DNA from: Girardia tigrina
Lineage: Eukaryota
Assembly: GCA_001938485.1 (NCBI GenBank)
Contig: MQRK01215702.1
Span: 1-54,691 of the forward strand
Reading direction: 5' to 3'
Length of the DNA stretch: 54,691 nucleotides
Position 1 is the first letter of the stretch. Each line of letters begins with the position of its first letter. The notes below the pieces were generated by a model. That model ran no database searches. It was not told the DNA's origin and was given only the letters and a program-made list of their open reading frames with translations. The position numbers and the translations under genes were made by a program. Positions 18,001 to 54,691 of this stretch are shown here, one piece after another.

Positions 18001-21000
18001 TCTAAAGTTTAGATTCTAAACAAATGTTTTTAAAAATATATTTTCACTGAATTAAGCATCATTTTCAGCAGGAAATGTAATGGCACAAGAAATTGTCAAA
18101 AATTAAACCATTTAATGATGATAAGTTTGTTAAAGTGTACTAAACGTTGTAAACATAATTTAACTCGAAATAGAATCTGAATTTAAAGATAAAAGTTTGT
18201 CTAATATGATAATTCCTCGTGAAACATACCATCTCACAATTCAAGAACAGTTTAAAAAAAATCACAAACATTTGTGATTTTTTCATTAGTACTTTATGAA
18301 AGTAATGATATTAAAGATACTGCTTATCTTGTGATATTTATTCGTGGTATTACTCCAGATTTTAATATGATTGATGAGCTATTGTTTTTCTTTATGGTAC
18401 TGTAGCCGTTGGGCCGTGGGTGCACTCAAATATACACAAACATTATGGCTTGGGTTTGTATATATTTGAGTGTCTCAGTAGGCAAGGAACCTGGTGGCAC
18501 CTATCTCCTCTCCAGGTATGGATGGCCGTTGGCTCCAAGGAGCTCATCCTTCCTTTGCTAGGTTTTGTTTTTCATCCTGCTAGGTGTCCACACACCTCTT
18601 CACCCAGGTTGCTCTGGGTGAGGAAGCCGGTTTAGTCGCCAACTATTCGACCATGGACAGGTATTACAGGTTTACATGGTACCTGTACCAGATAAATTGT
18701 CTGACCGGACCTGTCAATGGCCCCGCGATTTCCCTATCGGTCACCCAAATAAGTACTAACTCGGCTGTTGGTTGCCTAACTTCAGAGATCGAACGAAATC
18801 CGACGTACCCAACTGCGGCTATTGATTACCATTTGTCTTAAGAAATAAGTATTTTCATTATCACTTCATTATAAACCATCAATCTCTTGAAGCGGCTGTT
18901 TTACAAATGAATCCTATCATGAATGGGGTTACTAAGACTGAGAATTTTATTAAGAGTAGTGAATTAAAGCAGCAGATTCCGCATTCTGGCACTTGGTTTA
19001 TGTGACATGTATTAGTTTTTTGAGATATTATATTATTTTCTAATAGTTGCACTACCCAATTTTGTTTGTCTTTGATTATTGCATAAACCGTTTATTAAGA
19101 ACATTTAGACAAGTCTCGTCTGAATATTTATTACAATCACATTTAGAGTCATTCTTATTTCTCTTTTAATCATGATTATTCGAACAGTTTTTCTAAGTAA
19201 TTTTTTTAATAAATTAATTAATATTAATTAAAAATAATAAATTTTACCATTTCTCAATAAATCCCAAATTATAAAAATATCATCATTAAAAATACATTAA
19301 ATTTAAATTATACCAAAAATATTAAACTTAATTTTAATTGTTAAATTAAAAATATGAACTTATCAAATGATTATTTTAATTATGTTCGAATAGTCAATCA
19401 CTTTAAATTTAAATAAAAAATACCAATTTCCATCTGGGTGGGAGAATCACCATTCTAAATTCAACATACTTAAATCAACATACAGCATTCATACATTTAC
19501 ACATTCAAACAATATAAAATATTCCTCACAATGACAATTAATTTCGACGGTATAACCGTCATCGTCAGGTCTCAAGAAAAAAATGAGTTTTAAATCTTCT
19601 TATAAAGCTATGAGATAATGACTCCTTATGACAGAAGGAATACGAACACTACCACATCGACATTATTTGTTGTGAATAAACAACTTGTATACTATGCACA
19701 TATTTGTTACATCTGTACATATTATGTAAATAAATGTTTGTTGAAAATACTCCTCTTATACATGCCTTCATTCAAAACCTTGTAAACAACAACTTTTATT
19801 ATATATATACACCAAAGCCCCGCTATGCGTTTATTCGTTATGCGTCTATTCGCTTTTGCGTCGATTGATTTTTTATTTTTTGCCATATATAATTTCAGGG
19901 AACTTTTCACAGCCACGGAAGGAATTGTTTATATTACAATGAAAACGTTCTGGACAAACTTCACTATATTAGATGGGATTAAATATATTGCAGGATCCTG
20001 GAATGAAGTATCCAACAAAAGCATAAACGGTTGTTAGCGTAAATTATGGCCGGAATGTGAACATAGCCCATTGGAAAATGACACGAATAATGATAGGATA
20101 ACTGCAATTAAAGAGATAGTTGACTTAGCATCCGCATTGCAAGTTGAAGGAATGGAGGTCGAAGACATAGAAGAACTATTGGATTCGCACAATGAAGAGA
20201 TAACAACTTCTCAATTAATGGAAATTGAATTTCAGACAGCACACAGTAGTGATTCTGAGGAAAGAATCGAAGATATTGCCGTAGAACAAACGTTAACGAC
20301 GAAACGTTTAGCTCAAGCTTTTCAATTAATTGATCAAGCTCTGCAGATATTTAATCAAGATGACCCTAATCACGAAAGAAGTTCGAGGGTAAACAGATCA
20401 GTTCTGGGTAGCATAAATTGCTATAAAGAAATTTATGCGGAAAAAAAGACAATGCACTACAAACCACTTTGGAAAAAATTTTTAAAAAGTAAATTTTGAT
20501 TTGGAAAAAAGTTTTGATAATTATATTTATAATACATACTTACTTTTTACTGATTTTATATTATTAATTAGTTTTAATGGATTAAGATCACAATTTTCGT
20601 ACTATTTCTTGATAAAGATTTGTCTTATTTTGATTTTTATTTAGATAGATATATTGTAATAGTCTTTCTGATCAAGATTACCACATATTCGTTATGCATC
20701 GGAACTCATTTAGCGTCTCAACTTTCGGAACCGAATAGAGACGCAAAGCAGGGCATTGGTATATATATATATATATATATATTTCGAAAATATAATTTGA
20801 ATAAAGCTTTGTTTATATAATTATTGGACATGTTTCGATGTTTATATACATCATCATCAGCAATTTGAAAACAATCAGAAATCAATCCCTCATAGAACCA
20901 TTCCTAACATTCATGAATGATCTTCATCCTAATATTAAATTTACCACAGAATTGGAAGTAGATAATAAACTTCCCTTCCTGGACATTCTTGTCACTAGGA

Positions 21001-28239: not shown

Positions 28240-30420
28240 AAGAGGGATAATAGTCTGTATTAGAAAGCTAACAAAAATCAGTTGATCATCATTTATTATC
28301 TATATATGTATAAGTACTATAGTAATATTACCCATATTTATATTAAACAATAGATTTTTATTTATATTATAGTAGGAATTTTCTTTCCTTTTTCATTCCC
28401 TAGGGGGACGTATTTTTTGAGTGACTGCCTCTAGTAGGTTAGAATTAGGTACAGAAAGTTTATATTATTGTGTGCTTATATTATTTATAAAAAACTGCTT
28501 AGTATTGTTATTAATACAATAAATAATAATTTTAAAATTTTAATGACAATAGCAATTAACGAATATTTTTCCATAGATAGTTTCATAATAAATTAGCTTG
28601 GATTCCGAAAATCCACAATTGACAACGTCGTTATTAGTGAATTGTTGTTGTCTAGGAAATAGTCGGGAATGTCTAATTTTTGCTTGTTGTTGTATGACTG
28701 TTTCTTGTTGTTTGTGCTAGTTATCAAGTTACTGTTGGGGTCCATTATTTGTGAGGGTCTGCTAGTTGTCGTCTTTTGTAGAGAGAATTTTTTTAAATTA
28801 TGTTCATTTTTCATTCTGACCCCAGCGTATTTATAAAGATAACATAGATGGCAAATGATGTATTTCGTCGAGACTACCTTTTAATAAATATTATGAATAA
28901 AAAAAATAATTAATTAAGGTAAAACAAATTTAATTGACAACAATTTTAATAACGGACTAATAAAAAGAAAAATAATATCACAAATACTGAGGAAGGGAAA
29001 TGGTTAACAATATAGAGAGTTCAAATGCATTTTTCAATTATTTTATACTTCGAATGTAAACTTTTGGCTGTTTGTTTGAGAATTGTTTGTTGTAATATGG
29101 AAACTAATCAATATCTACTTTCAACTAGCGATCGTATATGTATCCCCATGATTGAGAATATTATTTATACAATGTCGGATGATATTGTTCACAAAATTTC
29201 GAATAATAATTATTCTGGGAAAAGGTGATAATTTCGTCCACGTAATGGCGAACAAAAGGTATATAAATGTTTAATCAGAGACTACTTATAACATTGCTAA
29301 TAACATTTTAAATTATTATTTTTTATTTTATTAATGATTTTTGTAAGTAGCGTTTATACCACTTTCATTGATATCACATTCCGAAGTCATAATTTAACAG
29401 TACAAAATTTATTAATATCAACAATTCACATACTTAAACAAATTTCTTATTAATTCAATTATTTCGCCAAAAATTAATTCATAATTTTTTTCGATTAAAT
29501 TTTGAAAATTTTCGAAATTTAAACTTCACATTATACTTACATTTTTTTACGAAAATTTTACAAAATTCAAATTTTAAATTATTTTACATTTTTCAAATTA
29601 AACTTCAAATTATATTTAAATTTTTTACGAAAATTCTACTGTGATATTAAATGAATTATTTAATTAAATATGAAATTCGAATAAAAAGTGCTTGTTTAAA
29701 TATTGTAAAAATTGTAGTTTTTCAAATATATGTTTAGTATTATTAAATCTTAATTTTTAATTCGATTTTATATAACATGGCGACAAGATCAGAAAAACAG
29801 TTTCATGGAGGAATTTTTGTTTAAAGAAAAGGAATTTAAAAATTTGTTTTTGTTTTTAAAAAACATTCAGCGAACCAAACGAAAATTAGAGAACACGTGA
29901 AAAATGTGTTGGAATTCATCAAATTATTTACGTTTGGTGAAAACGAAAAAGGATGAATTGCAACTTTTCCAAAAATATTTTGATGATGAAATCAATAAAG
30001 AAATCAAAAACGATCCATCATACGATGTTGGATCCGAAAATCTTGATGATTACTGTGAGGAATATTTGGTGTGTGGATGTTTTTGTGTAGTTTTTGCATG
30101 TTCAAATGTTGTATGTTGATTTGGGATTGTGCCTCTCCTAACCAGATGGATTATCAATATTTAATTTTTTATAATCTGAAACTAATTTATTTAAATTTAG
30201 ATTTAATATTCAATTTTTTAGTTTTTATTATTGAAACTTTTAAATAATTTTAATGATTTGATTTTTGTAAATTTTTAAATAATTAAAATCAAATTAATGT
30301 TTAAAAATGACTATAAAAATATTTTATTTTAGCCAATCAAATTTAAATTAAATATTTTTAAATAAAATAATCTTATCAAGTATAGTTTAGATTATAATGG
30401 GAGATATTGAAAATTGATTG

Positions 30421-31560
30421 ATGGATTCTAGTGAAACCAATAATATTGATCATCATAAAGATGATAAAAATTGTGAATGTAATAAATGTTCTGTCAAATG
30501 TGTGAGTTCTCTTAACATGGTGACTTCACACCACGTGACTCCGAACATCAAAGGTCCAGAAACATTCAATGGATCCGAGCACAAGTTAGAAGAATTCCTG
30601 ATAAGTTTTAACAGGTATTCAAAGATTATGGGATTATCAGAGGAGAGAAAAATCCTACTGGTAACACCCTACATGACTCCAGAGGCGATTCTGAGATACG
30701 AGAAGGCCCCAGGGAGTACTTGCGAAGAGAAAATGCGAGCAGCATTTTCAAAAGAGAAATCTATTTTGGATTTGATGAAAGATCTCATTGAGTTATGAGT
30801 AGGTTGCGTGACCCGTCATTTGCGTTCCGCAAAGCAGATGAGATAATCGAAAAATTAGTGAAGAAAAAGTTTGGTAAGAAAGAACTATCAAACTTGGTCT
30901 ATGCTAATATGATTGATGATGATAACTTCGATCAAGAGATAGCGATTCGAGATGTAACAAAGGTAGAGAAAATCGAAAACATACAAATGAGGATGTATGA
31001 ATATGGGAAAAAGAAAAGAAATTCACCGATTGCAGCATATAACACAAGGAAAGAAAACGATTGGAAAACTGTGGAGAATAAAAGAAGAACACCAAAACTA
31101 CGGAAGGACGATGAAAGAGAGACGGTACAAGTCGAAACTATGAAGTCAGAGAAATAATTTGTTGGGCATGCCATGAGGAAGGTCATGTTAGAAGAGAATG
31201 TCCGAACGTTAAGTGTAGTCACTGTCAAAGAAGAGGACATTTACGAACACAACGTTATGAAAACCCAAATAGGTTTAAAGAACGTGACCAACGCAAATGG
31301 GACAATAATAGAAATCATTGGAATGACAGGAGAGATTATTCTAATCAGAGATATAGAGAACGACCGGCATATATGAATAAGAAACAACACTTGGCGGAGT
31401 TAGACGACAGAGATGATGAAATGTATAGGAGATCGGAAATGTCTGTTAGAAGATAAGAGAATACAACAGGAGATTATTCTAGAGGTAAAAGAAGATCCGG
31501 AGACGAACAGGGAAACGAGGACGCACGATCACAAGGGGAGGTGATCAGTGTGCTTCATTA
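30421..31560 (+). pseudogene. Inner Gypsy gag (frameshifted)
   Basis: ORF pieces 30418-30798 and 30795-31157; CWACHEEGH and CSHCQRRGH zinc knuckles. Confidence 0.85.
31510..31553 (+). promoter_or_regulatory. -1 programmed ribosomal frameshift signal (gag-pol)
   Basis: G GGA AAC heptamer in the gag frame, 6-nt spacer, stem GCAC-GATCAC/GTGATC-A-GTGTGC; the -1 frame runs uninterrupted into the protease ORF at 31579. Confidence 0.7.
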
Positions 31561-34500
31561 GAAACCAAATGTAAATGTATGTTTGATTGTATGTATGAAT
31601 GTGTGTGTGATTGTATGTTTGATTTTACGGATGGAAATATTTCTCAAGAGATGTGCGAACTTGAATGCAAAGATATTGTAAATCGAGAACAGTGTAATTG
31701 TATGACAACTCAAGATGATAAGAAACTAAATGGTAAAACGGAAATATTGAAGATATCAAAGTTTAAGATAAATTATAAAGAACTGAATGGACGTCCATGT
31801 GTGGATTTTTACGTGAAAGATAGAAAACTTCATTGCCTTTTGTACACTGGAGCAAGAGTAAATGTAATTAAAGCGGAGATAATTAAAAACATGAAAGATA
31901 TTAAAATAAGAGAAACGAAAAAACGTATCCATTGCGCAAATGATTCAGGACTGATCAATTATGGAATCGTTCAATTAAATGTGGCTATTGAGGGAACAGA
32001 AAAGTTAATAGAATTTTATGTGGTTAAAGAACTAGACCCCGAAATGATCGCAGGTATAGATTTCTTGGATAAATTCGGAATAAAACTGAAAAGACAGATA
32101 CCTCGAGGTGGAGAAATATTGGTGATTAGAGACAACCCATCAGATGAGGACAGACAAAGAAGAATAATGGATATATTTGGCAAGCAAATTGACGGGTAAT
32201 TAATGAAGATTCTAGCAAATTATAAATCAGTATTCATGGCTGATAAGTGCGATATTGGGAAAACATCATTAACAAAACACAGAATAGAAACACACGGGGA
32301 TCCAATACTAGTAAAACCTTATCGTCAACCAAAACACTTTGAGGACAAATTGGATGATGTTATTAAAAATTTCGAAGAAAATGACATAATCGAAAAGTGT
32401 AGCTCACCATGGAATTTCCCNNNNNNNNNNNNNNNNNNNNNNNNNNNNNNNNNNNNNNNNNNNNNNNNNNNNNNNNNNCAGTTGAATAGAATTACCGTCA
32501 GGCCAGCGTTTCCTATGCCAAATGTAGATGACATGCTGAACACACTGAATGGTGTGCAATATTTTAGTACAATTGATCTTGGGAACGCGTATTACCAAGT
32601 CGATTTGGAAGAAGAATCAAAGATTAAAACAGCATTCTCAACAAGGAACGGACAGTATTGTTTCAAAAGAATGCCGTTCGGGATAGCAGCAGCCCCAGCA
32701 ACTCTCCAAGAGCTAATGGTCAAAGTCCTAGGAGATTTAAACTGGAAAGAGGCAGTAGTATATTTGGACGATATTTTGGTTTTTGCAAAAAATAAAGAAG
32801 AGCATATGCAACGAATAAAAAATGTACTGGAAAAAATAAAGGAAGCAGATTTAAGAATTAACCCAGAAAAGTGTCAATTTTTAACAGAAAGAACAAAATT
32901 TTTAGGATATATTGTCAGTAAGAATGGTATTGAAACTGATCAAACAAAGATTGAAGCCATTAAAAAATTTCAGAACCCATCATGCATCAAACATCTGAAA
33001 AGTTTCTTGAGTCTAACAAATTACTACAGAAAATTTTTAAAAGATTACGCAAAATACTCAAAAGTATTGGAGGGTTTATGTGGTAAGAATAAAGACAAGA
33101 AAATAATATGGACTGAAGNNNNNNNNNNNNNNNNNNNNNNNNNNNNNNNNNNNNNNNNNNNNNNNNNNNNNNNNNNNNNNNNNNNNNNNNNNNNNNNNNN
33201 NNNNNNNNNNNNNNNNNNNNNNNNNNNNNNNNNNNNNNNNNNNNNNNNNNNNNNNNNNNNNNNNNNNNNNNNNNNNNNNNNNNNNNNNNNNNNNNNNNNN
33301 NNNNNNNNNNNNNNNNNNNNNNNNNNNNNNNNNNNNNNNNNNNNNNNNNNNNNNNNNNNNNNNNNNNNNNNNNNNNNNNNNNNNNNNNNNNNNNNNNNNN
33401 NNNNNNNNNNNNNNNNNNNNNNNNNNNNNNNNNNNNNNNNNNNNNNNNNNNNNNNNNNNNNNNNNNNNNNNNNNNNNNNNNNNNNNNNNNNNNNNNNNNN
33501 NNNNNNNNNNNNNNNNNNNNNNNNNNNNNNNNNNNNNNNNNNNNNNNNNNNNNNNNNNNNNNNNNNNNNNNNNNNNNNNNNNNNNNNNNNNNNNNNNNNN
33601 NNNNNNNNNNNNNNNNNNNNNNNNNNNNNNNNNNNNNNNNNNNNNNNNNNNNNNNNNNNNNNNNNNNNNNNNNNNNNNNNNNNNNNNNNNNNNNNNNNNN
33701 NNNNNNNNNNNNNNNNNNNNNNNNNNNNNNNNNNNNNNNNNNNNNNNNNNNNNNNNNNNNNNNNNNNNNNNNNNNNNNNNNNNNNNNNNNNNNNNNNNNN
33801 NNNNNNNNNNNNNNNNNNNNNNNNNNNNNNNNNNNNNNNNNNNNNNNNNNNNNNNNNNNNNNNNNNNNNNNNNNNNNNNNNNNACTGTCAAAAAAGAAAG
33901 ACTTTAACCACAAAAACGAAAGAAAGTTTTATTAAACAATTTGCTGATGAACCATTTCAAAAGCTGTATATGGATTTTTGCGGACCATTTAAAAGGACTT
34001 TGGATATCAATATATATTAGCTATAATTGATCAATTTAGCAGGTATATAAGTCTAAATGCTGTAATTCATCAAGATAAGAAAACTACTCGGAAGGTACTA
34101 CTGGAAAGATGGATTTGGAAATTCGGACCAACAAAAGAGATCCATGTGGATAGATGTAAAGCATTCGAATCGACACTCTTCAAAGATACACTGAAGAGAT
34201 TTAAAGCATAAATAATTTATTCCAGTCCTTATCATCACAATATCAATGGCATCATTGAAAGACAAATAAAATAAGACGGAAATATTGCCAGAAGTAGAAT
34301 TTATGATGAACAGCACAATTCAAGCTACCACAGGAATCTCACCAGCAGAAATTATATTTGGTAGGAAGCTAAGACATTGGTGGAAAGATACTAAGAAACA
34401 GAGTTGTAATAAGAAAGAAAAGAGCGAAAATACGATAGAGACAAAACGAATATTTCATACAGAGGATAAAGTGTTGATAAAAAAAGAAAATGCTACAAAG

Positions 34501-34638
34501 GAAGAAGATCGATATATGGGTCCAGCCACAGTAAAAAGCAGAAGACATGAAAGAAGTTATGAATTGGAGCTAGATGATGGTAGAATTTTGATCAAAAATA
34601 TGGAATGGCTAAAGCTATTTAAATCGAGGGGGATGTGA
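31510..34638 (+). pseudogene. Inner Gypsy pol (PR-RT-RH-IN), disrupted
   Basis: ORFs 31579-32199, 32203-34020, 34285-34638; RNaseH lies in an N gap. Confidence 0.9.
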
Positions 34639-35097
34639 GGAATATTTGGTGTGTGGATGTTTTTGTGTAGTTTTTGCATGTTCAAATGTTGTATGTTGAC
34701 TTGGGATTGTGCCTCTCCTAACCAGATGGATTATCAATATTTATTTTTTTATAATCTGAAACTAATTTATTTAAATTTAGATTTAATATTCAAATTTTTA
34801 GTTTTTATTATTGAAACTTTTAAATAATTTTAATGATTTGATTTTTGTAAATTTTTAAATAATTAAAATCAAATTAATGTTTAAAAATGACTATAAAAAT
34901 ATTTTATTTGAGCCAATCAAATTTAAATTAAATATTTTTAAATATAATAATATTATCAAGTATAGTTTAGATTATAATCGGAGATATTGAAAATTGATTG
35001 ATGGATTCTAGTGAAAGCAATAGTATTGATCATCATAAAGATGATAAGAAATGTGAAGGTAATAAATGTCCTGTCAAATGTTTGAGTTCTCTTAACA

Positions 35098-38000
35098 ATT
35101 ACATTCAACGAATGTTTAAATTATTAGAAAAGAAGGAGTCAAAAATAAGCAATATCAAACCAATATTTCAGATAATTCAGAATAAAAATGAAAATATCAT
35201 CGAATACGCCAAAATAATACGCATAGGAAGTTTAGGAATAAAAGAAATCAAGGAAGATATAATGATCGAAGCTTTCTTGGAAGGTTTGGCATATAAGAAA
35301 ATCGCAAAAATTGTCCGGTTATTTAAACCAAAAACATTAGAAGAAGTGATTGACCTTATAAAGGACGAGCAAGAACCAGAAAATATTTTCGAGAATGGCC
35401 AAAATTTTTATTACATTAAAAATGATCAGGAAAGTTTGAAACTGCTGAAACTTGAAAATGAAGAACTTAAGAATGAGATACGACAATTGAAATCGATAAT
35501 ATCGAGAATAAGAGAAAAACCACAGCCAAGAAAATATGATCCAGTAAATATGACTGGAAATTTCCCTAAATATTCTATGGATAAAAGAGAGTGTTTCACC
35601 TGTAAAAGGATAGGACATATTGCTAAATTTTTCAGGGAACGCAAATGTTACGGTTGTGGAGCGACAAACCACGTAATTCGGGATTGCGGAATAAAACGAT
35701 TAAGATATTTTCAGGAAGATGAGCAAGAAGTTTTAAGTAACGGGCCATCAGAGAAGGAGAATACTGAATTGCAGGATAATCAAATTAATATGATAAACAA
35801 GTCAGAATGGAACAAAGGAAAGTCAAAGGCCATTTTTATGAACAAACCAATGTTGGAAGAAGCATATAGTAATTATATTCACGGTCAAGGAGCGCTACCA
35901 AAAAAGAATCTGTATAAGTAGGAACCGACGTTAATATCAGAATCAAGACCCGAGAAAGCGAGAAATAAACCGATTGTTCAGTGTAATATGGCGAATATGC
36001 CAGTCAAAGTCATTCGACACAGGTGCTGACTTAAATGTCATCAGTCATGAGTTGGTGGAGAAGATTTGTGAACGAAATCCAGACGTAAACATTTATGATT
36101 CAAGAAAGATAACATGTGCAAATGGTACTACGGAAGAATGCATAGGAAAGGTTCAACTTAATGTGGCAATCGGACCACATATTACAGCCCATGTTTTCGA
36201 CATTATGCCTAAAATATTTCCCCACATTTTCTAGGACTACACAACTAGGAGGGTCCGCGTTGGGGGGTCGTAATGCGGGATACAACCGGATAGAGACTCA
36301 AAATATCGAATTATACAAAATTATTGTATCAGATAATGTTACTACGAGTGTTTATGAAGATTATTTTATTAAAGGAATGATAGTGGACAGTTACAACGAA
36401 AGAATGAGTGATGAAAACCGATAATTTATTTTTACAGGAGAAAAAGAGAAGCTCAGCGAAAAAGGCCTGATGGCAATGGATAGCCTTATCAAATGTTATG
36501 ACGGATATGTTTGGATCAGATTAACTAATATTGAAGGAGGAAGAAGACAGATACGTACTAGGATAATCTTGGGTTATGTAGAGTTATATCATGAAGATGA
36601 ACAAACGACAGAAAAAAAGATCAATATACAGCCTATCGAAGGAGAATCAGAAAAAAAGAGGAAATCGCAATTGAAGAAACGCTGAAGAGCATTAACGAAT
36701 CCATTAAAGCACCGAACGAACAGGCAAGAAATAGCCTAATGGAAATTATACGGGCAAATAAAGATATTTTTAGTACGTATAGACTGGATATCAGGAAAAG
36801 TGATCGAATTGAACACACCATTGAGACCGAAAATGAAAAGCCAATTAATTTTAAACCTAGAAGGATACCCCTGGGACTTGAACAAAAAGTGCAAGTAATG
36901 ATCGAGGAAATGGAAAAGAAAGGAATTATCAGACCTAGCACGTCCGCTTGGAACTTTCCAGTCGTAGTGGCTAAGAAAAAGAATGAAGATATTCGACTAT
37001 GCGTAGATTATAGAGCCCTGAATGCGAAAACAAACAGACCGATATTTCCAATACCATCTTCAGAAGAGATTTTCGATAGTATTGGGGGATCTAAATATTT
37101 TTCTACTCTCGATATATCAAGTGGGTATCACCAAGTACCAGTTGCAGCAGGAGATGTACATAAGACTACATTCAGTACCAGACACGGTCAATACGAGTTT
37201 CTCAGAATACCATTTAGGTTATGTGGTGCCCCTGTAACCTTTCAGAGATTAATGAACTTAATTTTAAGAAAAGAAAATTGGATCAACTGTGTTATATATC
37301 TTGATGATATTTTGATTTTTGGAAAGACGATAGAAGAACACAATCAAAGGTTAGAAATGGTGTTATCGAGAATAAAACAAGCAGGACTAAAATTAGCTCC
37401 AACAAAATGCCAGTTTATGCAAACAGAGATAAAATATTTAGGTCATGTAATCAACGAAGATGGCGTGAAGACAGATCCTGAAAAATCAAGAGCATTAAAG
37501 AATGGAAGTTACCAGGCTGCAAAAAAGAATTACAGACATTCTTAGGATTTTGCAACTATTATCGCAGGTTTATCAAGGATTATGCTATAATGTCTAGTCC
37601 TTTAAGTTCGATGTTAAAAAACGATTCGAAATTTGTGTGGACAGACGAATCGAGAAGTATGTTTTACAGACTCAAGGAACATCTCACACAACCTCCTGTT
37701 TTAGCTTTACCTATAAAAGACGGTAAATATATGTTAGATACGGACGCATCCCATGATGCAATTGGTGCAGTGTTATCACAAATCCAAAATGGAGAAGAAC
37801 GAGTTATTTATTATGCCTCGAAAACACTTACTAAGAGCCAGAGACAATATTGTATTACTCGAAAGGAACTGTTAGCAATCCATACGTTTGTTTTGAAATT
37901 TAAACATTACTTGATAAGATCACATTTTCTTGTCAGGACGGATCATCAGGCACTAAAATGGCTTTTAAACTGGAATAGCCCAAACACATCACAGTACTGT

Positions 38001-39567
38001 ATTTGGAAATCAGAACTGGAAATATTTGATATGGAGATAGAAATTCAGAAAAGGAAAGGACCACAAGAATGCCGATGGTCTTTCAAGACCAGCACCATGT
38101 GAACAGTGTGCCCTACATCATGAAGATCCAAAAAAAAGAAACGTAAAAGAATATCACCCAGTGTACATAGAAAATGGAAAAACTCACAGCGAGTATTCGG
38201 AAACAGAATAACGAGAGTCCAAACGAGTGGGAGCAGGAAACAGATGAAGAGTTACGGAAGTTACGGAATCCAATAACTTACAAAGACGAGAAAAAGAAAT
38301 ATCAATCCGGTGGACATGAAATCAGAATTCGTGGGGACATTATATATTTATTTAAGGATGGAATCTATAGAGTGATAGTGCCAAAACACAAAAGACAGGA
38401 AATAATTTGGAACTACCACCGACAATTGGGACATCCAGGAATAGAAAAAACAGCAGATGTTATTGCAAGAAATCATTACTGGGTGAACATGGTTGAAGAC
38501 GTAAAAGAAACATTAAGTAAATGCATACCATGCATTAGAAACAAAAATATCGATGGAAGAATTAGAGCTCCATTACAGAAGTAATCGGAATAGATATCAC
38601 AGGACAATTTACAAGTACGAGGAAGAGATACCGATACATCCTTGGTGTGATTGACTATTTCTCGAAATATGTATGCTTAATACCGATGAAGACAATAACA
38701 GCAGAAAAAGTGATAAAAAATTTATGGATTCATTGGATATCAAAATTTGGGATTCCAGAACGAATACACTCGGACAGGGGTACTAATTTTACATCAAATT
38801 TATTTATTGAACATTGTCGAGCACTGGGAATAAAGAAGACTTTCACTTCGCCATATTATCTACAGGGAAATGGATTAATAGAAAGGTTGTTCCAAACGGT
38901 AAAACTGATGATCAGCGCAGTGATGGAGGAAAGAAAGATTGAAGACTGGAGTGAAACACTACCATTCATAGAACTGGGAATACGAACAACAAAGCAAAAA
39001 ACCACTAAGTATTCCCCATACGAGGTGTTGTTTGGACGCAAACCAAGAATCAACTTCATTCACTCTGAGCCCTTCTCGGACACGGAATATCACAGCACTG
39101 ATGAATATGTGAATGAAATGAGAAGTAAGATAAAAATAGTTCACGAATTCGTTACTAGAAATTTGAGGGACCAAAATGTTAAAGATAGATTAAGGTATGA
39201 CAATCATCGAAGGAACGCAAAACTACAAGTCGGACAGAAAGTTATGGGCAAAAATCAAGGAGCATAAGGCTTTGAAAATAAATACATTGGGCCATTCGTT
39301 ATCAGGAGAATTATTGACGACTGGACATTCATTTTATATCATGAAGGGGTGAATAAAGAAATACAACGTAACTACAACCAGATCAAAGAAGTGAGAGAAA
39401 CCGAAGATCAGAGTGGGGAAACAAAGACTCAAACCAGTATACGAACTTGGAGAATAAAGTGCAATGAAACTGCTCAGGTCAAAGAGAGAAGATACCCGAC
39501 CAGAAGTACGCGGAATCCAACACCGATATACAGATGGTTTCGAAGAGGGGAATGTGATATTAAATGA
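35098..39567 (+). pseudogene. Outer Gypsy gag-pol (3' part), disrupted
   Basis: CFTCKRIGH and CYGCGATNH knuckles, FDTGAD, RT 36739-37545, RNaseH 37590-38102, integrase 38174-39267. Confidence 0.92.
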
Positions 39568-52039: not shown

Positions 52040-54155
52040 GTCAGCGTTTCTAAGAAATCCCTGGTTCTGCCAGACCATGTTGCTACTAGATTGTTTCACG
52101 ATGAAGAGGACTTGATATATGTGTTTGAAGGTTTAAAGGTAGAAAAAAGAGAACTGTGTGTCACTCCAATCAACTATAACAACTCACATTGGTTGGTACC
52201 ATGCTGCACACTAAAGCATGCATTTATATTTAACTCTTTAAACAATTTACCTTTAGAGAAGATAATTACAGCTCTTGTCTCGCCGTTAATTACTGCCATT
52301 AACAAAACTGTTACCGATAGAAAAATAAATTATTTAACATAAAATTACCTCTAATTTTTCCGTAGTGTGAGCAACAAAAGAACAATAAGGACTGCGGTCC
52401 TTTGGTCTGTGGCTTTATAGAAAACAATAAACGAAACAATCGACCCCCTTTTTGAAATCAACATAGAAAATATCCGAAAACGCTGTAATCAGCTGCGCCC
52501 TCATGTATCGGATCGTCCTGCAGGAACAACTCGGGGTGGGGACAGTTCAGTTACTGAAACAAAGGTTGGATCTTGAAAAAAATCCAATGATTTACCAACT
52601 TCACAAAAATTTACAGAGAGTGGATACTGGATTGCCAACTTTATATTGTAATTGTATCACAACAACCCCCAAAAATGATGTACAAGAAATAATTTACAAC
52701 ATCACTAAAAAGAAAGTTCAAAAGTAAATTAGACGACAAGAAAAAACTATGAAATAAAAGAATAACAGAGAATTGCGTTACAAAAAAATCTCAGAGATAA
52801 TAGTGGCTAATTCCACAAAAAGTGCTGAAGAATTGGACTTGCTCATTACCAGATACATTTTGCAAGCAAGAGTCAAAAAGCAAAACGGTCAAAAATCTCA
52901 ATGCATCAAGAAACATCAGGAACATTAGAAAAAAACGGATTACTTAGAAAAATAAACGACATTACTTTAAAATAAAACCGAAAAGCCCATGGAAACAATT
53001 CTAAGTGACACAACTGTTGATGGAGAGCTATCTATCAAAAAGCGACTATCCTCCTGAAACAGACTGAAGTAATGCACCAAACATCAAACCTGGCCCAAAA
53101 TTTCAATTTCAGCATGTCACTCCAGAAGAGATTGCCAACATACTCAAGAACACCAAAAATACTAGTCCCGGTATATCAAACATTGACTATGCGGATATTG
53201 ACTATTGCGACCCGGGTTGTCAATTTCTGGCCATATTATTCAACAAAATTATTGATACAGGAGTCATTCCACCCAGTTGGAAGAAATTCCTAACGGTAAT
53301 GATTCATAAATCCAGTAAGTCAGGAAATTACAAAGATAGGATCATGGAGACCAATAGCCCTGATGGAATGCATTGCCAAGTTGTTCACATCTTGCCTATG
53401 CACTCAACTGGAATGGCTGGTGAAGAACAATTTAATTTCAAATTTCCAAAAAGGCATCGGACCATCAGACGGGTGCACTGAACACAATAACGACATGAGA
53501 ATTTTACTGGAGTAATATGAACATCTTCACATTGCATTCCTCGATCTAACTGATTCGTTTGCCAGCATTCCAATTAATCATATATTAGAAGTTCTCAGAA
53601 GAAAAGGTCTAGATTCATTCTCCTGCTCTCTCATTGCCAATCTTGGATTGTTCATCAACATATACCTGCAATGATTGTACGACTGAAGACATATCCATCA
53701 GGAGGGAGTTTAGACAATGATGTCCTCTTTCAATGCTGCTGTTCAGCGTTGGAATTGATCCAATTTTGGCTGTCCTACAAGATAATGATGCGTTTGGTAT
53801 TGACACCGAGGCTGGTAAAATTACTTGTCTGGCATATGCAGATGATATTGTACCAGCAACTCGTGTTTACAAGCCATGGTTTCATCTGCATGTGACATGG
53901 TTGAATGGACTTCTATGAAGTTTAACCCAGCCAAACAGAACTCCTCTTATGAATGAATCAATCAATGACGTTACCTTATCTTGGAGTAGATTTTACCAGA
54001 AAGACAAAATTCACTCCTGAACGTCTATTTTTATCAGCTATTAAGGACTTGAAAAAAATAACCAAATCAATACTATTTCCCTGGCAGAAAATCGAAGCGT
54101 ATAGAATCTTTATACACTCTCGATTCACCATCTATTTTCGAAACTATAATATATA
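52040..54155 (+). mobile_element. Degenerate NeSL/Utopia-like non-LTR retrotransposon (Ulp1-like protease plus RT), endonuclease missing
   Basis: PINYNNSHWL...FNSL...QQKNNKDCG (C48 protease), then TSPG, IPPSWK, WRPIAL, FQKG...DGCTEHN, AFLDL..F.SIP, GVRQ*CPLS.LLF, LAYADD, LFPWQKIE; many stops and frameshifts. Confidence 0.85.
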
Positions 54156-54331
54156 TGTTGGGGAATGATTTTAATGAGTTTTTTTTGTTAAAAAAAAAAT
54201 TTAATATAAAAGAAAATTTTTATTTACTTTTGGTCGAGTAAATTAATTCCATCATAAAATTGCGAATTCATCCAAATGCTGATCCTAAAATTCTAATATT
54301 TATGTATATAAAAAAAAATTAAATAAAAATT

Positions 54332-54562
54332 GATGTTTTACCCACTCCTGGGGTATCCTCGGGAATGGAGCATAATCGGTGTTCCATTCCTCCGGATATT
54401 CCCGGAGTCGGGCTTATTTTTCATGATTGGCGGTGGAAAGAAAAAAAAATAATTATTAATAATAAATAAAAATAAAAAAAGATGTTTTACCCACTCCTGG
54501 GGTGTCCTCGGGAATGGAGCATAATCGATGCTCCATTCCTCCGGACATTCCCGGAGTCGGGC
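54332..54562. ncRNA. Two tandem copies (period 149 bp) of a 72-nt GC-rich stem-loop, putative structured RNA
   Basis: 54341-54412 and 54490-54561; the four differences are one compensatory pair and two G-U to Watson-Crick changes. Confidence 0.55.
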
Positions 54563-54691
54563 ATATTCTTATTTGTTTTTTGGAGGAGTGAAAAATAAAA
54601 ATGGAAATAAAATTATGGGGCTTTTAGCCCATTAACAATTTTCGGGGATTAATCCCCTGATGTTGCCAGTTAATCTGACGTTAATGGGCAT

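Follow-up and report, generated by a model that had tools for sequence, protein, structure and literature searches.

A conserved hairpin in the U3 of Burro-like gypsy elements of Girardia tigrina as a candidate cis-acting RNA signal

Known retroelement hairpins and the LTR at the contig end

Burro and GYPSM1 of dugesiid planarians are the described retroelements that most resemble the one studied here. The hallmark of Burro is an envelope placed between gag and pol together with a Ubi/SUMO-like domain, and the part of its description available to us mentions no hairpin in the LTR (PMC6431247). Burro is also depicted as a giant of over 30 kb, with MATH, BIR, BCL2 and ankyrin domains. According to the accessible sections of a further report, planarians have Burro-like elements in abundance, and these are active and kept in check by PIWI (PMC8532177). 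Two systems described elsewhere have hairpins in the LTR itself. Foamy virus cassettes, which our locus resembles in that a retroelement LTR contains one or two hairpins, give microRNAs with virus-specific seeds that need not agree between relatives; in the sections available to us, their Pol III A and B boxes and terminator were shown by mutation, and the precursor is a dumbbell (PMC3993851, PMC7104284). The U3 of the maize Sirevirus offers another likeness, being GC-rich, with hairpin-forming duplicated motifs of variable copy number ahead of the TATA box; as far as the available text goes, its units are short perfect palindromes and the element is a plant copia element (PMC4728375).

The window, by which we mean the whole stretch of DNA analysed, is an entire contig of the 1.43-Gb G. 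tigrina assembly and is 54,691 nt long. A sequence-only reading of it had drawn attention to two 72-nt units with a period of 149, separated by only four differences and each preceded by the same sequence. These points were confirmed: the units occupy 54341..54412 and 54490..54561 of the plus strand, they differ at unit positions 15, 39, 42 and 57, and the shared sequence ahead of each is GATGTTTTA. Each unit folds into a single rod of 30 pairs with a 5-nt loop. The loop had been read correctly; the upper stem had not, as it has 13 bp with a terminal G·U rather than 12 bp, and two G·U pairs of the middle stem were absent from the first list. The folds have minimum free energies of -46.6 and -50.5 kcal/mol (z of -6.86 and -7.25), 0 of 200 shuffles were as stable, and the minus-strand folds are weaker, at -34.9 and -44.8. 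An unpaired GANG motif stands below each hairpin on the plus strand, at 54332..54335 (9 nt below hairpin 1) and at 54481..54484. An Rfam comparison had also been suggested, and the hairpins match no known family: at the gathering score nothing fell over them in the window or in eight loci of families A, B and C, which are described below, and the relaxed threshold gave 14 sub-threshold matches in the window, dispersed and far under the cut-off. The sole gathering-level Rfam match in the window is a divergent 5S rRNA copy on the minus strand at 18712-18826 (43.8 bits).

A genome-wide search with the first hairpin, likewise suggested at the outset, found it to be a repeat with 309 candidates; the 40 that were scored gave 66 matches, many of them paired 130-150 nt apart. 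Every copy whose flanks were read sits in an LTR. The 5' boundary of this LTR, TGTTGGGG, is sharp and is common to 25 listed places of the first 30 loci, the 3' boundary of oriented loci is CCCAACA, and the ends are TG...CA. Whole copies elsewhere are 0.9-1.6 kb long, most about 1.1 kb. Exact 4-bp target duplications flank 15 of 25 whole LTRs; 6 others follow a polypurine tract, 3 precede a primer-site-like leader and 1 has none of these. A conserved leader with TGG, a putative primer site, lies 3' of the 5' LTRs in families A and B. Copies of the LTR carry one, two or three hairpins, and the tandem pair is a duplication inside the U3. The initial suggestion of an RNA array in its own right had to be abandoned, as the hairpins are present in one to three copies inside an LTR; the idea that they are cis elements belonging to a mobile element or a virus was right as to location. 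The target sites of these LTRs are AT-rich 4-mers, and insertions are often in members of the same clade, inside the LTR or the ubiquitin-like ORF (L007, L016, L089 and L114).

The LTR of the window begins at 54156 on the plus strand and runs to the end of the contig (54156..54691), with its hairpins starting 185 and 334 nt into it. Measured along one gap-free whole LTR, the two hairpins begin at 185 and 319, the 14-bp palindrome at 568 and the TATA-like box at 744. Because the hairpins precede the TATA-like box, and granted the role that we assign to this box, they are in the U3, and the window would hold the 5' half of the LTR. A cluster of short perfect palindromes, which in whole LTRs reaches the TATA-like box, starts in the window at 54615..54691 (plus strand) and is likely to be a DNA enhancer zone. 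Upstream, at 53000..54153 on the plus strand, lies the RT region of a decayed non-LTR retrotransposon (2934 genome candidates), the host of the LTR insertion: its relatives, 84% identical, continue past 54153 where the window turns to LTR, and an uninterrupted relative holds an RVT_1 domain. We also considered the hairpins as part of the 3' UTR of this upstream element and rejected that origin because the LTR interrupts the element. Some LTR copies have a polypurine tract ahead of them; as the window copy has none and interrupts the non-LTR element, it is read as a solo or 5' LTR. Its orientation makes the plus strand the sense strand of the element. In an LTR of either kind the TATA-like box comes after the hairpins, so that those of the window are probably passengers.

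A Burro-like element and its sister families

Judged by domain order, the LTR with the hairpins belongs to a multi-copy, envelope-bearing, Burro-like gypsy element; the kind of element had at first seemed unrecognised, and its order in fact agrees with that of Burro-like planarian gypsy elements. A sister family, B, is 73-78% identical to the family of the window, A. Family B contains RT, RNase H and integrase, and the order protease-RT-RNase H-integrase was met in three of its copies (L049, L050 and L220); family A is tied to that order by an integrase tail (49% identity) and by a DEDDh exonuclease ORF beside the 3' LTR. In one family B copy (C252468) a viral fusion glycoprotein (PF24664, 284 bits) is followed on one strand by protease, integrase, polypurine tract, LTR and hairpin. 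The envelope was thus seen directly in family B, the internal region of family A not being assembled. After the 5' LTR leader come zf-CCHC and Retrotrans_gag, the latter match being under the cut-off, and ubiquitin domains lie further downstream.

The DEDDh exonuclease ORF (PF00929; 2682 genome candidates) is separate and lies upstream of 3' LTRs, and its catalytic D, E, D, H and D are invariant in 14 aligned proteins. It is preceded by an fn3-like, membrane-ended tail that a sister family has fused to integrase. At L032:6955-8319 and in relatives, the ORF stands directly ahead of the 3' LTR with its catalytic residues intact. Beyond the genome, relatives comprised 14 DEDDh homologues, and a metagenome scan gave four distant loci (30-39%); downstream of the three that were examined there was no hairpin of this sort. 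The metagenome contigs L118 and L119, which are distant relatives, carry the same fn3-like/transmembrane ORF, degenerate and intact DEDDh ORFs in tandem, and a ubiquitin-like ORF, and no LTR hairpin was seen after these.

The element shares with Burro and GYPSM1 a Gag with a CCHC knuckle and ubiquitin/SUMO-like domains, a mononegavirus-like fusion glycoprotein ahead of protease-RT-RNase H-integrase, a high copy number and an AT-rich host of flatworm type, so far as the available portion of their description covers these features (PMC6431247). It is unlike them in its LTRs of about 1.1 kb and its internal region, apparently much under 25 kb, and unlike Burro as that portion describes it in having an fn3-like/transmembrane tail after integrase and a separate DEDDh ORF before the 3' LTR (PMC6431247). 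MATH, BIR, BCL2 and ankyrin gave no Pfam match in the 16, 9 and 4 frames scanned, all from assembled pieces. We use the name Burro-like because MATH, BIR and BCL2 were absent from what was scanned and the assembly contains no whole element; the element looks like a compact relative of Burro, not Burro itself.

The family is also present outside the assembly. Twelve runs were considered, all made up of contigs and none labelled as small RNA. Contigs from three runs of one sample aligned to the whole LTR (411, 23 and 19, with 0 from a fourth run), spanning both hairpins and stopping at the 5' end of the LTR. As the status of these runs as RNA is a guess, the contigs speak for the presence of the family in another sample, not for its transcription.

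Pairing in the three hairpin families

In 32 distinct rows of family A, 97.3% of 959 cells are paired, three G·U pairs are invariant in all 32 rows, and double changes occur at three pairs; in the subfamily with a single hairpin, two pairs show true double changes. The number of pairs with a double change was matched by 48 of 500 shuffles, which ignore relatedness. Because the first rows had mostly been selected by hairpin likeness, 29 loci chosen by a neighbouring region were added, and these yielded 34 hairpins with the same variant pattern. Among 91 gap-free copies (those with indels or N being excluded), the variants found in at least 5 copies are all G·U or Watson-Crick, except for a standing A·C mismatch, and variants that create A·C occur in at most 4 copies each. 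Counted as distinct types, 15 G·U against 12 A·C is not a clear excess, so that rare changes look like neutral decay and the skew is confined to lineage-level polymorphisms, five of G·U type against one A·C. The copy-number skew toward G·U thus reflects a few lineages. We rejected an origin of the variants through ADAR, as A>G in the stem (9) is not in excess over T>C (6) and G>A (10); editing does occur in planarian transposable elements, and the available part of the report on it does not mention this element (PMC8797187).

These counts alter the argument that the sequence-only reading had made for structure. The pair that it cited as a compensatory change from A-U to G-C is A·C in 46 of the 91 copies, A-U in 28, G·U in 11, G-C in 5 and A·G in 1. 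Since this pair is mostly an A·C mismatch genome-wide, the two window copies represent separate single changes from the mismatch. Fully structure-preserving substitution is a fair description of the two window copies and fails for the genome, where the 91 copies include, all at low frequency, 12 variant types that give A·C and 18 that break pairs in other ways. Selection on a plus-strand RNA structure is supported all the same, with the invariant G·U pairs and the covariation of family B taking the place of the cited pair.

Fourteen family B loci were fetched by way of the exonuclease, and 12 of them carry, in the corresponding position, a hairpin that differs from that of family A, in many cases as tandem copies. 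Across 35 rows, from which two palindromic assembly artefacts had been removed and to which one row was added by hand, 94.3% of 1004 cells are paired. Double changes at 6 of 29 pairs amount to 47 cells, against 19.4±3.2 in shuffles and 1-14 in slid controls, such counts being inflated by relatedness; they include 14 C-G to A-U and 12 A-U to G-C cells. As many doubly changed pairs were reached by 198 of 500 shuffles, in which relatedness is again ignored. Searching the genome for a core pattern shared by A and B gave 599 matches, of which some were counted once per strand; the control gave 1. When a model was built from family B only, it found every family A locus given and both window hairpins on the plus strand, the first at 27.9 bits and the second at 28.5 bits (17.6 on the minus strand), with E about 1e-4, a rough value; it found no family C hairpin. 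The hairpins of A and B are homologous, and that of family C, at the same place in the LTR, is analogous.

Family C was met among 22 loci at 54-67% exonuclease identity, where this third hairpin type was present in 10 and a family A hairpin in 1, and no hairpin was detected in the other 11. Its hairpin, ~70 nt in length, sits close to where the LTR starts; two U·G pairs occur in every one of 28 rows, all chosen by that motif and 11 of them from loci first fetched by way of the exonuclease. The apex pattern has 1257 genome matches against 0. The unpaired GANG just below the stem recurs in all three families (64 of 65 copies in A, 50 of 54 in B, 17 of 29 in C). Register shifts limited RNAalifold to the upper stem in B and C (13 and 12 pairs), and the lower stems were therefore counted with a named structure or anchored scripts. 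In L091, L100, L105, L106 and other loci the family C hairpin lies about 100-165 nt from the LTR start and combines an invariant apex, a variable loop of 4-6 nt and covarying lower stems; for testing the idea of a 3p microRNA or of a protein-binding loop it may be the better choice. Downstream of it, about 250-470 nt into the LTR, there is another long and conserved stem-loop (L092, L100 and L105).

Taken together, the invariant wobbles and the double changes over long range indicate selection on an RNA rod of the sense strand. The alternative, that this part of the U3 is a DNA enhancer made of nested palindromic factor sites, with the RNA hairpin as a by-product, is in our view unlikely. The region does lie in the U3 upstream of other palindromes and of the TATA-like box, and CATTCC/GGAATG hexamers, which we take to be TEAD-type sites, number 1-4 per hairpin in family A and 1-4 in family B; the two commonest family A states, the A·C mismatch included, each spell a CATTCC. 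However, invariant G·U and U·G pairs are mismatches in DNA, the double changes of the basal stem join bases 70 nt apart, the internal loops are conserved where palindrome repair would erase them, and family C keeps the rod with no CATTCC/GGAATG in 29 of 29 copies. The adjoining perfect 14-bp palindrome behaves differently, having A·C in 8 and G·U in 5 of 48 copies and hence no G·U bias. The palindrome-rich U3 of the maize Sirevirus is a precedent for an enhancer of this kind, within what is available of that report (PMC4728375), but here the element is a gypsy element of an animal, and its 72-nt units are irregular rods that show invariant wobble pairs and covariation over long range.

Readings of the hairpin as RNA

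The units could also be independent Pol III small-RNA genes, owned by the host or the element, that ride in the LTR, as was proposed at first; we consider this highly improbable. They are GC-rich in AT-rich DNA, the shared GANG could be a start site, a relaxed B-box match is present in 32 of 66 family A copies, and T-runs follow some copies. The T-rich run reported after each unit is not general, however: TTTT occurs within 10 nt in 29 of 65 distinct family A copies and 15 of 54 family B copies, and after the stem in 1 of 29 family C copies, so the terminator is not conserved. By the usual box patterns, an A box is found in 0 of 66 copies in A, 0 of 57 in B and 5 of 29 in C, and a strict B box in 0 of 66, 1 of 57 and 2 of 29, respectively. 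No Rfam family and no flank-read copy outside an LTR argues for such genes, and the hairpins are not a new host RNA gene family.

A precursor of microRNA type, from which Drosha and Dicer would cut a guide of ~22 nt that tunes host or element genes in the manner of foamy viruses, is possible and, on balance, doubtful. The family A rod has about 33 positions and AT-rich unpaired flanks, and overall rod size is similar in B and C despite insertions and deletions. The canonical precursor has a stem of about 35 bp, a 10-nt loop and unpaired flanks; family B, with about 35 positions and a loop of 8-10 nt, agrees with it, and family A has 33 positions and a loop of 5 nt. The 5' arm of family B has a 23-nt block that starts with U and is conserved at at least 0.93 at 22 of 23 positions (57 copies); it is flanked by variable positions, the strand opposite it is variable too, and covariation is seen in the basal stem. 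In 26 of 29 family C copies the 3' arm opens with the same 8 nt, a partly circular count, since the rows were selected by motif. LTR microRNAs with virus-specific seeds provide the precedent, in the available sections of the foamy virus reports (PMC3993851, PMC7104284).

Several features weigh against a microRNA precursor. With its 5-nt loop, family A would leave a precursor of about 47 nt under the 13/11-nt ruler, the usual measure for precursor cut sites. On assumed cut sites, the candidate seeds of family A split 32/31 on the 3p side and 51/10/4/1 on the 5p side, and they differ among families A, B and C, so that no seed is conserved. The basal UG is present in 1 of 66 family A copies and CNNC in 17 of 66. 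A Pol III cassette, which would spare the genomic RNA from Drosha, is lacking. The hairpins thus differ from foamy cassettes, as their boxes and terminator are not conserved and they stand 130-150 nt apart with full basal stems. A more far-reaching form of the idea, which we hold to be more doubtful than its general form, is that an envelope-bearing gypsy clade of flatworms carries in its U3 a microRNA-type precursor kept by covariation in three families, with family-specific guides and beside a dsRNA-era DEDDh gene, as an independent counterpart of the foamy cassettes without the Pol III cassette.

Our preferred explanation, to which we give a probability of roughly 0.45, is that the element RNA carries the hairpin in its 3' untranslated tail as a folded cis-signal. 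It starts from what was directly observed, namely the location in the LTR, the sense orientation, the copy number, the domain order of the element and the conservation of pairs. In LTR elements the tail of the genomic RNA is the U3 of the 3' LTR. By this standard biology the hairpins of a 3' LTR would be transcribed at the end of the genomic RNA. The rod, on our reading, would fold in vivo and be selected during replication. A protein may bind the rod together with its short conserved sequences, and the bound rod could aid the stability, export or packaging of the RNA. A cis-acting, protein-bound signal fits best with the fixed sequence near the apex and at GANG, the held length and the tolerance of one to three copies. 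Retroviral 3' cis-acting stem-loops for export or packaging, such as CTE and RTE, are similar in being long irregular stems that have conserved internal sequence and belong to the 3' untranslated region of a retroelement RNA; the present hairpin is unlike them in lying inside the U3, not before the polypurine tract, and in having no Rfam match.

As far as our searches go, the kind of element is already known and the hairpin is a newly described part of it. Hairpins or microRNAs of the LTR were not found described in the literature on these elements, and the supplement of the original Burro paper may cover LTR features. The available published section on Burro-like elements covers proteins only, and within what was searched the U3 RNA element would be an undescribed functional part, kept by paired changes in several families, with sites in the genome that number from hundreds to more than a thousand. 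If the cis-signal is real, it is a new RNA motif of retroelements; if a guide RNA is made instead, an invertebrate gypsy element would be encoding its own microRNA.

Elsewhere in the window, at 30400-39550 on the plus strand, two decayed gypsy-type elements stand in tandem, with gag-, protease-, RT- and integrase-like frames read by eye, and they are unrelated to the LTR with the hairpins. The cox1 copies of the assembly have ATA as Ile at conserved sites, which fits the flatworm mitochondrial code and also table 4.
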